A stretch of 32,050 nt of DNA from Betaproteobacteria bacterium (lineage in GTDB: Bacteria; Pseudomonadota; Gammaproteobacteria; Burkholderiales; JBEEJL01), in the NCBI GenBank assembly GCA_043772415.1, contig JAYVGF010000055.1, forward strand, positions 1 to 32,050. The letters run 5' to 3'. The position numbers and the translations under genes are program-made. Shown here piece after piece: positions 20,756 through 32,050 of this stretch; position 1 is the stretch's first letter; each line of letters starts with the position of its first letter. The notes beneath the pieces were generated by a model, which made no database searches, was not told the DNA's origin, and worked only from the letters and a program-made list of their open reading frames with translations.

Positions 20756-21877
20756 TTATTTCAGTTTTAACGCTTCCACTGTGACTTCTACCCGGCGGTT
20801 GTTTGCCAGGCACTGTTGTAATTCCAGCGTGGATTTGAAGCGTACGTTGCAGGTTTCCACTTGCTCGCTATCCGCTTTGGACGCAACGCTGATCAGGTTG
20901 GCATCGAAGCCTTTACTGACCAAATAGGATTTGGCAGCCTGCGCGCGGTCTTGCGCAAGTTTGGTATTGTAACCAGGCAGACCGGCGATATTCATGCGGT
21001 CTGCATGGCCGGTTACGCTAATCCGATTGACCGATATTTCCGGGGATAGTGCTTTGGCTATCATTTCATCCAATTGGTTTTTAGTTGAAACAACCACACT
21101 ATTCATATCGCGCTTATCGAAATTGAACAAAATAATGGACTGCCATGCCAAGGATTCTTGCACCATTTTGATCGGCGTCGGTAGGGGAACATCCACTGCC
21201 ACAGGTTTGGCTGACTGGGCGGTGGCCGTCGCCGGCTCGAATCTGACCACTAGCGGTGTCGTAGTCTGCGGGATTGATGTAGCCGCTTTGGCCAAGCACG
21301 CATCTGCCGCTTTTTTGGCTTCTGCAAGATTATCTTCGGCAATTTGTACATAAGGTTTGCCGTGGCGCCACTGCTGTTGATTGTGCTCGTTACCGGCATG
21401 TGCCAGTTCGACTTCGGCGCAGGCGGTTTTTTGCGTCGCGCACGCAAAACCTGGATGGCTTTTCAAGGATTCGATATTGGCCCACAAATCCTGGCGTAAT
21501 TTCGGCGCACCATTTATCAAGGGCGTGTCCCAGCCTAATTCCTGCGCCGATTTTTTCGCCTCCATCCCGGCTATCAGTTTCTCGGCCAGTCTCAAGGCCT
21601 CGCGCGGAAAGGCCGAACGGTCATTGCGCGTATATTCATGCAAAGAAACATCGAGCCAGCATTGGGCTTTCGCCAGATGATAATCCGCGACAAGACGACC
21701 GGTATCGTTCAGCGCCTTGATGCGGCTTTGCGTCGCGCCGTAGGTGGCGTAGTCCGCCGCGATAGATTCATCGCTGATGTTTTTGTTTGTATCATTAAGC
21801 GACTGAGCCGCTAAGTTGACACCGGCCATGCTCATCATGGCGAGCGCAGCAAAAAAACGGTGGTGTTTGGATTTCAT
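20756..21877 (-). CDS. OmpA-family peptidoglycan-binding protein with a helical (DUF4398-like) N-terminal domain
   Basis: Start at the ATG at 21877 (AAAGGA SD). Signal peptide MKSKHHRFFAALAMMSMAGVNLAAQS. C-terminal OmpA-like core (ISVTGHADRMN...YNTKLAQDRAQAAKSYLVSKG...NRRVEVTVEA). Confidence 0.85.
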   Translation of the reverse strand: MKSKHHRFFAALAMMSMAGVNLAAQSLNDTNKNISDESIAADYATYGATQSRIKALNDTGRLVADYHLAKAQCWLDVSLHEYTRNDRSAFPREALRLAEKLIAGMEAKKSAQELGWDTPLINGAPKLRQDLWANIESLKSHPGFACATQKTACAEVELAHAGNEHNQQQWRHGKPYVQIAEDNLAEAKKAADACLAKAATSIPQTTTPLVVRFEPATATAQSAKPVAVDVPLPTPIKMVQESLAWQSIILFNFDKRDMNSVVVSTKNQLDEMIAKALSPEISVNRISVTGHADRMNIAGLPGYNTKLAQDRAQAAKSYLVSKGFDANLISVASKADSEQVETCNVRFKSTLELQQCLANNRRVEVTVEALKLK

Positions 21878-21922
21878 GGTTTTTCCTTTAATACTCATCT
21901 GGTTTAATTGATTCCGGTGTGT

Positions 21923-31200: not shown

Positions 31201-32050
31201 TGGATGACAACACGGGCAATCAGACTATCGCCGGGAGACAACACGCCGCCAGTCGCAATGACGGAATTGCCAGCGTTGCCGTCATACAAAGACTGAACCA
31301 CCGGCGCCACTGATCCGGCTAACGCGGGAGGCACCAAAATAACTTTGCTTTGCACACCGAGACCGGCATCGGAAACTTCCGCAAGTGCGAATGGAATATT
31401 TACGCCGCTGCCGATTAACTGGTCAGATATTTCCACGTCCGTCAGCGTCTCATCGCCCTCGTTGACTACCTTGATGTCATAGGTAATGGCGTATTTCGCC
31501 AACGAGCCGATCGGCTTGATGGATACTTTATGTTTTGCCGCGCCTATCTTGCGTTTGGGAAAGCTGACTGGGGTTGATGAAGGAATATCTGCATTAGGCA
31601 AAGTTGGCAGAACTAAAGCATTGGTAGATTGATCGACCGCCAGTGCGTTAATCGGCGCTGTGACTGCGCCTGCGTTAGGTATCGTATGCCCGGCGTTCGG
31701 ACCCGAAGCGGACGATGCCCAGGTGTCATTGTTTTGAATGACGACGGGTAGCGGATTGATGCCGTAATCGAGACTGACGGTAAAGTTAATCGTGCAGCTG
31801 CCGCCGACCGGTAAATTCTGATTGCCCGCCAGCAATGCGATATTGCCTACACCGTTATAAACACTGGCGGGAGCGCTACAGTTCGCCGCTGTCGCCGGCG
31901 CGTTTGCGGTAACACTGAATCCACTGACGGCTATAACAGGTGCCGTACCAAACGTGTGCACCAAGTTGTCCACCGTCTGCACATTAGTGGCAGCGACAGT
32001 GCCGGTGTTGCCGATAATAATCGCGTACGGCAAATTGAAAGTTTTACCTG
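25266..32050 (-). CDS. Giant repetitive surface protein/adhesin (DUF11-like plus SdrD-B/Cna-B-like modules), 5'-truncated by the window edge
   Basis: The frame stays open to position 32050. The ORF-track M at 32033 is an internal TTG, and upstream codons read GKTFN with no stop. More than 2,260 aa are visible. Composition is Thr/Ala/Gly/Val/Asn-rich. There are repeated IG(V/L)AKR(V/I)...PGQ(F/Y)D(I/V)...V(R/H)VKP modules (DUF11-like) alternating with (I/L)SG.VY.D.NNNG...G(S/A)Y...V...PAGY..G modules (SdrD B-like). A canonical DUF11 lies at 25863-26243 (ASKTGDRSVVELGDTLKYTIQVRH...), followed by GKIFVDCNGNAVQDAEEIGIPGVRLYLEDGTYLVSDVEGKYSY. Confidence 0.9.
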   Translation of the reverse strand, partial: GKTFNLPYAIIIGNTGTVAATNVQTVDNLVHTFGTAPVIAVSGFSVTANAPATAANCSAPASVYNGVGNIALLAGNQNLPVGGSCTINFTVSLDYGINPLPVVIQNNDTWASSASGPNAGHTIPNAGAVTAPINALAVDQSTNALVLPTLPNADIPSSTPVSFPKRKIGAAKHKVSIKPIGSLAKYAITYDIKVVNEGDETLTDVEISDQLIGSGVNIPFALAEVSDAGLGVQSKVILVPPALAGSVAPVVQSLYDGNAGNSVIATGGVLSPGDSLIARVVIHVKPTKGQKIGQAIVKSKDSSGSNVEDRSNNGTSPNSGNPGNDNTKDSQDTVNDVPTEIRFAAISGKVWKDENNNRIKDTTEPSLDTTITVSGDELANPVSETSIAGAYSVAVPVSSTPYTVTETNPAGLNEGYSIKAAVAANPAVPAVMTANSSVITALFTDAVDGSGAPILDYANNDFTELPKGSIGVAKRIVAAVPVLGQPGQFDITHEFMIENKGLVPINNVQLSDALFGTSATTSSPWQAAEIIGVQSITITDLVNGATATANTVGSTGYIGDGNVGGNAIKLIVAGSLPADTPSIKTAIKARMTVRVKAAAGLRNGQAVADASDPIGNAVNDKSANNISAVMTSTPNAGKADDAANDVPTPIIFGQISGRVYEDLNNNGLYETANTPTEKGIGGVKLMVNGGDLPAGGIETVSDSADTPAKGSYSVLVPVISASTKFSVEEVQPAGYADGIDTAGSLGASPSASASAQAAGSVFNGGSDGLFNITLTETNFVSTDNNFGELVGGNVAIAKRVKSIAPVTGQPAQFDVTYEYNVANPSSVSISNVTVSDPLFNGATGVTVPFTAAEVVSVLSISAPVVSSGSTLTPATTGAGGYSGDGATPVTQTMIVGGTLAANATAQVTLTVRVKPNAGDHNSQAIINGKDAGDVAVTDKSNDGTSPSGDSLTPLSFATVSGVVYKDNNNDGVQAGANETGVAGREIKLAGGTLSGATPSIVVATGTTGAYSFTVPVLAANDLAYSLSKAAAAGGLSDGKSTQPASTSGTGAPSAGASATMSAVKPNSPIAFPGHVFGELPKGAIGLAKRVVSNIPVAATPGQYDVVIEYKVSNSGPVELQNVLITDTLVGAVGSGAPFKPAELVAVKSLSNVTAPTAGSALSLNTITSSGAFDGTVANNVLVTSASNLKPAAFGIFQISLRVKPEAGAHDGQAEVVAKDIAGNSVSDKSTDGVNPTAGDATKPADDAANNIKTPLNYAALSGSVYKDSNNNGVKDTAEQGIGGVVVTVKDGVLPAAGSIATTTKPDGSYAIIVPVGTNYTVEETQPAGYGDGKDTAGSDTNANNGTVTSGAGLSAGVGADRITSINAASPIVYAGYNFGEAVGGLSGHVWIDLNKDQAQKSGEADFKDIPVRVYPCCGYVDALTGQNYIDIKTDATGNYAAELPSGAARIVITRPVNFELTTASSEDQSVLVIAGTNTVALNTGYFPLGPDLKVNLSHSPAKFTLNNSGNLTIVVNNAGQQPTVGSYSVLAQLAEGLKVNAEALTAAGTGWKCSLVATASADQVRCDSTEVIAAGAVSPNPIQLKAFVKETVSTSAEIANKVLIKGGGETTPDRQPTMAEEAALTDKSAQLAACGPANACQDALQVQKPAAVSGSAWLENTNANQQNEQGELPLPGWRVAVIDYADPVHPVVKGTAIVDANGHYKIDNLEPTTTTSKYRLQFFDDTQASVDPLKAVPWITPVNNSGTTQSVSNGNRFAVDIASLPAGTTLAAQDLPLDPSGVVYDAVTRQPVVNAVVKFCRKGAAMAPTDLINGALYNVVDASCVSMSTGASGAYQFILQAGVTGEFTLDVTSVPSGYLPGLAKSIPAKTITLNSAAPAAGVADANPATPAFEVQVQAGSPRVGESTNYFVSFALTQGAKDVIHNHIPLDPAVPTKIFASKTGDRSVVELGDTLKYTIQVRHAFGSPLPLVVAMDRLPAGFKYIPGSTTIDSVAVTDAVAGIAGLGPQLNFRLGALAVNQLLTFTYRARAAVGSLEGSGINVVQAVSDTVRSNEARFKVKVTGGVFSKDACVVGKIFVDCNGNAVQDAEEIGIPGVRLYLEDGTYLVSDVEGKYSYCGLKPMTHMLKVDATTLPRGSRLTTSSNRNAGDANSLFLDIKNGELHRADFIEGSCSNTVLEQVKARRSQGEVRSPESEKQGAPALKFHGKAAGYPQEGTDSANQPLVKPRLPVPSSSPAKGTESEKNIPVPDLPAASTNTISK
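27897..31547 (-). repeat. Four tandem, diverged coding super-repeats of about 290-325 aa, each a DUF11-like plus SdrD-B-like pair
   Basis: Module starts are at 31547 (IGAAKHKV), 30641 (IGVAKRIV), 29669 (VAIAKRVK) and 28799 (IGLAKRVV), giving periods of 906, 972 and 870 nt. By eye, protein identity between modules is roughly 35-45 percent, with no long exact DNA repeats. Confidence 0.75.

Follow-up and report, generated by a model that had tools for sequence, protein, structure and literature searches.

We analysed three consecutive minus-strand genes in a 32,050-nucleotide stretch of betaproteobacterial DNA (contig JAYVGF010000055.1, positions 1 to 32,050; hereafter the window). They encode a giant repetitive fibre protein (the cargo), a 1,110-aa protein predicted to be a very large outer-membrane barrel, and a protein with an OmpA-like peptidoglycan-binding domain. 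The open reading frames (ORFs) occupy 25266..>32050, 21923..25255 (1,110 aa) and 20756..21898. An original prediction, made by a model from the letters of the window alone, had placed the three ORFs at these positions and proposed that they form a self-contained secretion or anchoring system; the ORFs, the junctions of 10 and 45 nt, the separate Shine-Dalgarno sequence of the second gene and a hairpin after the third were all found as described. The giant ORF has no stop upstream and leaves the window at its end. It was completed on the source contig, a 47-kb metagenome scaffold carrying the exact 1,110-aa protein (locus L083), of which the window is the reverse complement from position 3206. 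The features referred to below are as follows (AF2, AlphaFold2; pLDDT, predicted local distance difference test).

25266..32050, minus strand: cargo gene, 2,260 codons in the window and about 1.7 kb more past its end
25269..26468, minus strand: conserved C-terminal module of the cargo (last 400 aa; C-module), with DUF11 at 25890-26231 and an SdrD_B-like domain at 25614-25823
25269..25481, minus strand: Pro-rich C-terminal tail of the cargo, 71 aa, with a short conserved motif
21923..25255, minus strand: barrel protein, 1,110 aa, with signal peptide, Ig-like domain, conserved region and very large predicted beta-barrel
24653..24988, minus strand: Ig-like (Big_1-like) beta-sandwich, aa 90-201 of the barrel protein, predicted by AF2
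23876..24649, minus strand: conserved region, aa 203-460 of the barrel protein, with invariant motifs YPVYGD and DYSFEPFSG
21983..23872, minus strand: predicted barrel body, aa 462-1091, about 32 consecutive long beta-strands (AF2 secondary structure)
20756..21877, minus strand: peptidoglycan-binding partner, 373 aa, predicted periplasmic
21278..21772, minus strand: all-alpha N-terminal domain of the partner, aa 36-200, with 4 invariant cysteines (AF2 pLDDT >90)
20759..21160, minus strand: OmpA-like peptidoglycan-binding domain of the partner, aa 240-373 (PF00691, 42.5 bits against a cut-off of 27.2)
20702-20733, minus strand: stem-loop 3' of the third gene, about 24 nt past its stop

The three genes are closely packed. 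The TAA stop of the cargo gene (25268-25266) overlaps the Shine-Dalgarno sequence TAAGGGGA, and the ATG of the barrel gene lies at 25255, leaving a spacer of 10 nt. The barrel gene stops at 21923 and is separated by a 45-nt spacer from the start of the OmpA-type gene at 21877. The latter gene has two candidate ATGs, at 21898 (380 aa) and 21877 (373 aa); the second is preceded by AAAGGAAAAACC and is also the start called on the source contig, which gives a protein of 373 aa. The stem-loop downstream of the third gene folds with 13 pairs (−21.4 kcal/mol, z = −3.7, with 0 of 200 shuffles as stable). A terminator scan did not list it and its T-tract is weak (TTTCC); it may close the three-gene unit either as a terminator or as an RNA-stabilising hairpin. 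Given the two short spacers and the hairpin after the third gene, the cargo, barrel and OmpA-type genes probably constitute one operon. The upstream neighbour of the cargo gene on the source contig is a divergently transcribed histidine kinase, and no secretion-system genes adjoin the trio in the window or on the source contig, as had been anticipated.

The full-length cargo comprises 2,819 aa (L083:1531-9990). Extension of the sequence upstream recovered its N-terminus, which carries a Sec signal peptide (MSAFTKNLNRLPRIIALGIFSAMAFLRPAMA, followed by DG; cleavage between AMA and DG, judged by eye), then about 390 aa without any Pfam family and then the first CLIPPER-type domain. The protein had been described as a giant all-Ig repeat protein, and SdrD_B (PF17210, 130.7 bits against a cut-off of 29.7, four stretches), DUF7507/CLIPPER_2 (PF24346, 52.1 against 27) and DUF11/CLIPPER (PF01345, 41.7 against 24.6) all scored above their Pfam cut-offs; TIGR01451 was found in NCBIfam (83.6 bits against 24). 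DUF11/CLIPPER, DUF7507 and SdrD_B have been described as isopeptide-bond stalk domains of fibrillar adhesins (PMC12617251), and the cargo is probably fibrillar adhesin-like, its variable head lying at the N-terminus and its stalk being built from CLIPPER/DUF11, CLIPPER_2 and SdrD_B domains. Full-length orthologues with signal peptides were found in Undibacterium (2,828 aa) and Stenotrophomonas acidaminiphila (2,785 aa).

The lack of repeats-in-toxin (RTX) motifs, LPXTG and an autotransporter barrel, first noted for the part of the cargo visible in the window, holds for the full 2,819 aa: neither GGxGxD nor LPXTG occurs anywhere in the protein, and Pfam detected no Autotransporter barrel (PF03797), the protein ending instead in the Pro-rich tail. 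The Sec signal peptide, together with the absence of GGxGxD and LPXTG, rules out the type I route for the cargo; an RTX or LapA-like assignment was also rejected for want of genes for an ABC transporter, a membrane fusion protein or TolC nearby. In residues 1-590 Pfam found no haemagglutination or two-partner secretion (TPS) domain. The last 419 aa matched solely DUF11 and SdrD_B at E up to 1; neither Por_secre_tail nor CHU_C was found there, and the cargo was rejected as a type IX substrate. Overall, its sequence suggests a protein without any recognised outer-membrane sorting device. The C-module consists of DUF11, the SdrD_B-like domain, a Cys-containing conserved segment and the tail. The tail motif SPESE...P.L.F...TDSANQ.P.V.PR is conserved between beta- and gammaproteobacteria, which makes up part of a tail that is a candidate for docking or threading.

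The 1,110-aa protein has about 50 aa ahead of its putative signal peptide cleavage site (between ALA and QE) when read from its annotated start (25106..25255, minus strand), which is unusually long; an internal Met at residue 20 (MNILNKLSYVRRP...) would yield a more typical signal peptide, and the true start is uncertain. The description of this protein as an Ig-domain and barrel protein was upheld by the AF2 model, which contains an Ig-like domain (8 strands, pLDDT ~80) and the run of about 32 strands; the specific assignment of the Ig-like domain to Big_1 stayed below threshold in Pfam (21.7 bits against a cut-off of 34.9, E = 2e-4, residues 93-146). Homologues of the barrel protein do bear precomputed PF02369 matches. 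Residues 203-460 are strongly conserved yet have low pLDDT, and may represent a plug, a cargo-binding region or extra barrel strands. The strands of the barrel body are linked mostly by turns of 2-6 residues, and the run ends at RLRFKF, after which 19 residues follow instead of a terminal Phe (AF2 model, pTM, the predicted template modelling score, 0.54). The hydrophobic alternation of the predicted strands did not separate membrane from soluble, and this analysis was not used.

As predicted, the 1,110-aa protein matched no characterised translocator. It has no Pfam family above threshold and zero NCBIfam families, and a 43-sequence profile searched against all PDB sequences, where solved ushers, Omp85/TpsB, intimin/invasin barrels, LptD, MtrB and SprA are deposited, returned nothing better than E = 0.49. 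Foldseek retrieved solely large outer-membrane barrels (SprA, MtrB, LptD, TonB-dependent receptors and SlpA) with template modelling (TM) scores of 0.09-0.31. Since all matches are to generic outer-membrane barrels and of low TM, the protein is barrel-like without a specific solved relative. On the model it is predicted to be a very large barrel of the outer membrane, with some 32 or more strands. Its close homologues number more than 1,716, in Janthinobacterium, Methylotenera, Rhodoferax, Variovorax, Glomeribacter and others; their labels are 'hypothetical' or 'Ig-like domain-containing' throughout, and none is functionally named. An exhaustive profile search of 1.84 billion representatives counted 4,288 family members (representatives at 50% clustering).

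In the third protein, as modelled by AF2 (pLDDT 82), a signal peptide is followed by an all-alpha bundle, which a disordered Pro-rich linker joins to the OmpA-like domain. The latter domain resembles the C-terminal domains of OmpA, Pal and OprF (target-normalised TM 0.6-0.78, Foldseek). D293 and R311, within its GHADR and LSxxRA motifs, are invariant and presumably form the Asp/Arg pair that binds diaminopimelic acid. The helical domain is the best-conserved piece of the protein (conserved motifs include KAQCWLDVSxHEYTRNDRS and EVELVHAGNE), and no Pfam family matched it. Some orthologues have lipoboxes. The family has more than 1,501 members, all with generic names. The protein had been called an OmpA-type anchor. 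The OmpA domain was confirmed, as listed above, but a membrane barrel was not: the N-terminal domain is all-alpha in the AF2 model, with no PF13505 or PF01389 barrel, and the OmpA porin model of NCBIfam matched the C-domain alone (73 bits against a cut-off of 277). As modelled, the third protein would be a periplasmic helical bundle joined to an OmpA-like peptidoglycan-binding domain, and it should better be called a periplasmic peptidoglycan-binding partner.

Conservation of the arrangement was assessed in other genomes. A pattern scan for the YPVYGD and DYSFEPFSG motifs, using one genome per species, yielded at least 593 confirmed loci, of which the best 80, spanning Burkholderiales and Xanthomonadales, formed the synteny sample. 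The expected co-occurrence of the trio was borne out. A homologue of the cargo C-module ended immediately upstream of the barrel gene in 79 of the 80 loci (43-70% identity, mostly 50-58%), and in the single locus without it the contig reaches just 306 nt further upstream. In 73 of the 80, the OmpA-type protein's helical domain started immediately downstream (50-67% identity); three of the seven loci missing the gene lie at contig ends. Roughly half of the 80 loci show a 4-nt overlap between cargo stop and barrel start, and in most others the two lie within ~12 nt of each other. The remaining cargo was poorly conserved, with 24-35% identity or no match for the N-terminal 1,300 visible residues; a variable head and stalk combined with a conserved C-terminal 400 aa is typical of an anchoring or secretion module. 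All-against-all clustering of flanking ORFs from the 80 loci, which is noisy through spurious overlapping ORFs in GC-rich genomes, gave no further conserved gene beyond the trio. Carriers include the culturable genera Janthinobacterium, Massilia, Stenotrophomonas, Lysobacter and Sphaerotilus, with Massilia atriviolacea, Stenotrophomonas acidaminiphila and Sphaerotilus natans among the species. Massilia aquatica has a second cargo-barrel copy (L026), and its other copy (L013) has an OmpA-type gene; one tether may serve both systems.

Judged from these comparisons, the cargo, barrel and OmpA-type genes appear to travel together in hundreds of bacterial species. The alternative that three envelope genes with no relation to each other lie side by side here by chance has nothing to recommend it besides the generic nature of OmpA-like and Ig-like domains. 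Order and orientation are kept in 73-79 of 80 loci from two proteobacterial classes, start and stop codons overlap, and fusions join all three components (see below); on this sequence evidence we regard a chance neighbourhood as already refuted.

Natural fusions were frequent in the barrel family. Among its 150 best representatives, 89 are single polypeptides of 1,300-4,597 aa in which the barrel module is C-terminal. Ten fused forms were examined, and in 10/10 the segment before the barrel matched the window cargo C-module (35-55% identity), while the barrel part was 34-47% identical to the window barrel protein; the Pfam order in fusions is DUF11, SdrD_B, Big_1. Named sources are Rivibacter, Usitatibacter, Polaromonas and one acidobacterial metagenome-assembled genome. 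Fused ORFs were also present in 4 of the 80 synteny loci, and the two looked at in detail (L061 and L029) are both from Xanthomonadales. In L061 (Lysobacter sp.) the cargo tail continues through a Pro/Thr-rich linker into the Ig-like domain with no internal signal peptide; L029 likewise reads through to the Ig-like domain with no internal signal peptide, over a low-complexity linker. Three fusions contain all three components. The order in P0216 is passenger, C-module (599-860), barrel (1038-1952) and OmpA-like domain (2024-2123), and in P0245 and P0393 the OmpA-like domain sits between the C-module and the barrel. As the fusions cover all three components, the three genes of the window are connected through Rosetta-stone fusions. 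Since peptidoglycan is where OmpA-like domains act, the domain orders suggest a periplasmic position for the two ends of the barrel and for the cargo module's C-terminal end.

The fusions bear on the possibility that the barrel and the OmpA-type protein are only a docking platform, the cargo being exported by a general route, for instance the T2SS (type II secretion system), and rebinding via its C-module. Periplasmic folding is conceivable for the Ig-like domains of the cargo, the cargo of the split form carries a signal peptide of its own and ends in a free C-terminus, and the window itself gives no proof of passage through this barrel. A precedent is InvL of A. baumannii, an invasin-like adhesin secreted by the T2SS (PMC9245377). 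Against this stand the 89 of 150 representatives with passenger and barrel in one polypeptide: a passenger joined covalently to an outer-membrane barrel cannot exit via a separate secretin, so that at least the fused forms would have to be exported at their own barrel. The OmpA-like domain between C-module and barrel in P0245 and P0393 places the C-terminal end of the cargo in the periplasm and not on the surface, and no T2SS genes are conserved nearby in the 80 loci. We consider export by a general pathway unlikely; it is the sole rival with appreciable weight, and for the split form alone.

Another alternative is that the giant protein stays within the envelope, in the periplasm or along the inner face of the outer membrane, and that the barrel and the OmpA-type protein link the outer membrane to peptidoglycan. 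The chlamydial DUF11 protein OmcB is largely periplasmic, and the OmpA-like domain adjoins the cargo C-module in fusions. However, 2,819 aa of tandem Ig-like stalk with a variable head is the architecture of a surface fibrillar adhesin, homologous passengers exceed 3,500 aa and would be hard to fit in the periplasm, and a barrel of >30 strands would be needless for a simple tether. We rate a purely internal location as very improbable.

Some fused-type loci contain additional genes. In Usitatibacter rugosus (L081, CP053069, 5098..22792) a gene for a 909-aa CLIPPER protein precedes the passenger-barrel gene (2,263 aa), and a 7,656-aa ORF, for which no Pfam match is recorded, follows the latter gene with an overlap of 4 nt. 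In L082 a ScmC, PqqD and radical SAM/SPASM cluster (18943..21642) lies downstream of the P0245 gene and a gene for a 1,125-aa CLIPPER/SdrD_B protein; it looks like a maturation cluster for a ribosomally synthesised and post-translationally modified peptide. Extra CLIPPER/SdrD_B genes (909 and 7,656 aa in Usitatibacter; 891 and 1,125 aa in L082) would fit a usher-like platform, in which the giant barrel threads several folded Ig-domain proteins into a multi-subunit fibre and the window cargo is the sole or terminal subunit. The barrel protein, like ushers, has an Ig-like domain, and a barrel of such width could pass folded Ig domains. On the other hand, Pfam gave no match to Usher or to a PapD chaperone, the 80 loci have no conserved chaperone-like gene, and a single cargo gene stands beside the barrel in the 80 split-type loci. 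Moreover, the Ig folds of the cargo domains are complete and have predicted isopeptide chemistry of the intramolecular kind, unlike donor-strand-deficient pilins. We rate a usher-like platform as improbable.

The evidence computed here consists of gene linkage, domain content, signal peptides, synteny, fusions and the absence of homology to known translocators. The explanation that we favour, and hold to be probable though well short of certain, is that one operon encodes a self-contained, Sec-dependent module for the export and anchoring of a fibre, which would resemble an autotransporter split into separate polypeptides. Such a self-contained system, proposed from the window alone, is supported by the synteny and the fusions, and by the lack of a translocator match and of adjoining secretion genes. 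Signal peptides are present on the cargo and its orthologues, on the barrel protein and on the OmpA-type protein, and the cargo would cross the inner membrane via Sec. Its variable head and CLIPPER/SdrD_B stalk would end up outside the cell, while the C-module (~400 aa) and the Pro-rich tail would engage the 1,110-aa barrel and stay at or below it. The chain would pass through, or plug, the barrel lumen with its N-terminus out and its C-terminus in. The helical domain of the third protein may bind the barrel or the cargo tail, and its OmpA-like domain would bind peptidoglycan, so that barrel, tail and tether together would tie the fibre base to the cell wall and resist pulling forces. We infer this tether role by analogy with TpgA and AtaA (see below).

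Several observations weigh against the proposed export and anchoring module. Four loci (L022, L026, L028 and L037) have cargo and barrel genes with no adjacent OmpA-type gene. In the fused class of Usitatibacter no OmpA-type gene was present within the 8 kb shown, and the extra CLIPPER-protein genes of this class may hint at fibres made of several subunits. For the barrel protein, AF2 gave a model of moderate quality only (pLDDT 66, pTM 0.54). The fusion in L029 could be a frameshift artefact, and the topology is read from three fusions containing OmpA-like domains, all of them uncultured metagenomic sequences. For the split form, a general pathway encoded elsewhere, such as a T2SS, could serve. 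Names of family members in the source records are all 'hypothetical', 'OmpA family' or 'TIGR01451 repeat protein', and the functional readings given here are inferences.

By analogy, the design logic of the module would be that of type V secretion, its fused and split forms mirroring types Va and Vb. Common to both are a Sec-dependent passenger with a dedicated outer-membrane barrel, no ATPase or periplasm-spanning machinery encoded alongside, a passenger N-terminal to the barrel in fusions, the existence of fused (Va-like) and split (Vb-like) forms and, as far as the topology proposed here goes, an N-terminus outside and a C-terminus inside. In contrast to type V, the barrel has no detectable sequence or profile similarity to the 12-strand autotransporter or Omp85/TpsB barrel and appears ~2-3 times larger, with about 32 or more predicted strands; TPS domain, POTRA and alpha-helical linker signatures are absent, and ahead of the barrel come an Ig-like domain and a conserved region of 260 aa. 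In the split form the putative recognition module is at the C-terminus of the cargo, whereas that of TpsA is at the N-terminus. Membership of type Va was rejected (no PF03797 match; the barrel is separate and of an unrelated family), as was that of type Vb (no TPS domain in cargo residues 1-590; no POTRA, ShlB or Omp85 in the barrel protein; no PDB match to Omp85 or FhaC).

In intimin and invasin (type Ve), too, Ig domains of the Big_1 type occur with an outer-membrane barrel and an element for peptidoglycan binding in one adhesin system, and the N-terminal Ig-like domain of the barrel protein has weak similarity to Big_1 and Invasin_D3. The order is the reverse of that in type Ve, however: this domain is N-terminal to the barrel and, as the fusions suggest, probably periplasmic; peptidoglycan binding would be provided by a separate OmpA-like protein and not by a LysM domain, and the passenger is a separate CLIPPER/SdrD_B polypeptide. 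A type Ve assignment was rejected, with no match to PF11924 and, in the PDB profile search, E = 0.55 for invasin 1CWV over the Ig-like domain alone.

The closest parallel to the third protein is TpgA of Acinetobacter sp. Tol 5, also a periplasmic OmpA-like protein, whose gene lies within one operon with the adhesin and barrel (AtaA) and downstream of them. TpgA is co-encoded with AtaA, binds peptidoglycan as well as the barrel of AtaA, and is believed to clamp the adhesin's membrane anchor to peptidoglycan, resisting extraction (PMC12523085, PMC13082670). The N-terminal domain found here differs, being an unrelated helical bundle with four conserved cysteines, and the partner is not a trimeric autotransporter. 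Membership of the TpgA family was rejected: NF047726 scored 71 bits against a cut-off of 350, over model positions 150-267 (the OmpA-like domain) only. The third protein would be a functional analogue of TpgA and not a family member.

Wide barrels whose lumen is occupied or traversed by a partner are known from MtrB-MtrA, LptD-LptE, SprA and PapC/FimD, and ushers combine a barrel with Ig-like domains and pass Ig-fold subunits. Unlike those systems, the present one has no cytochromes, lipopolysaccharide-transport genes, type IX secretion system (T9SS) C-terminal domain or chaperone, and taxa and partners differ. MtrB/PioB and LptD were rejected on zero NCBIfam families (TIGR03509, LptD/OstA), no PDB match and low TM only; the chaperone-usher pathway was rejected on the absence of matches to Usher (PF00577) or a PapD-like chaperone and of a conserved extra gene in the 80 loci. 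The cargo shares stalk composition, signal peptide and great length with CLIPPER fibrillar adhesins (PMC12617251). The survey of these adhesins lists LPXTG, Por_secre_tail of the T9SS, CHU_C and an OmpA-like domain inside the adhesin itself as sorting and anchoring devices; a giant barrel partner with a separate tether is not among them (PMC12617251). A full-text literature search found no published description of the three-gene module.

A wider interpretation, which we offer tentatively and with less than even confidence, is that the module represents a new class of outer-membrane export and anchoring system, in which a barrel of at least 30 strands with an Ig-like periplasmic domain carries an isopeptide-stabilised giant fibre through its lumen, retains it there and is combined with a peptidoglycan clamp. 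Such a class would be an analogue of type V secretion, evolutionarily unrelated to it, occurring in fused and split forms in Burkholderiales and Xanthomonadales and as far as Acidobacteriota; this extension we advance with the same reserve.

Directly downstream of the trio and on the same strand lie genes for a PilS-like histidine kinase with six transmembrane segments (550 aa) and a sigma-54-dependent response regulator (451 aa) (17281..20291). An 80-aa ORF (20288..20530, minus strand), called on the source contig and matching no Pfam family, is located between the hairpin and the PilS-like gene, and its stop overlaps the kinase start by 4 nt. No −24/−12 promoter was found in the 360 nt upstream of the cargo gene, matches across the contig being at chance level. 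Regulation of the trio by the kinase and sigma-54 regulator was rejected, as the pair is not kept beside the trio in other taxa and no promoter was found; the two genes are neighbours outside the module. Elsewhere in the window are a gene pair for elongation factor P (EF-P) and EarP, the EF-P arginine rhamnosyltransferase (486..2245, minus strand), which is typical of betaproteobacteria and, taken with the relatives identified, would suit a betaproteobacterial scaffold; a 356-aa protein with two DEP domain stretches (3648..4718, minus strand) and a 160-aa SET-domain protein (5932..6414, minus strand), both domains being better known from eukaryotes; and a second, unrelated OmpA-domain protein of 328 aa (9577..10563, plus strand), some 10 kb away on the opposite strand.

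Fibrillar adhesins built on CLIPPER/DUF11 stalks occur commonly among Gram-negative bacteria, and for many of them outer-membrane crossing and attachment are unexplained. The module offers a concrete, testable answer for a large group, the barrel family comprising 4,288 cluster representatives and being present in at least 593 genomes at species level. Should the barrel be the conduit, it would constitute a new translocator family, possibly among the largest single-chain barrels, and its fused and split forms would be a natural pair for ATP-free export of large passengers. The combination of barrel, tail and tether could also act as a display scaffold for very large passengers.

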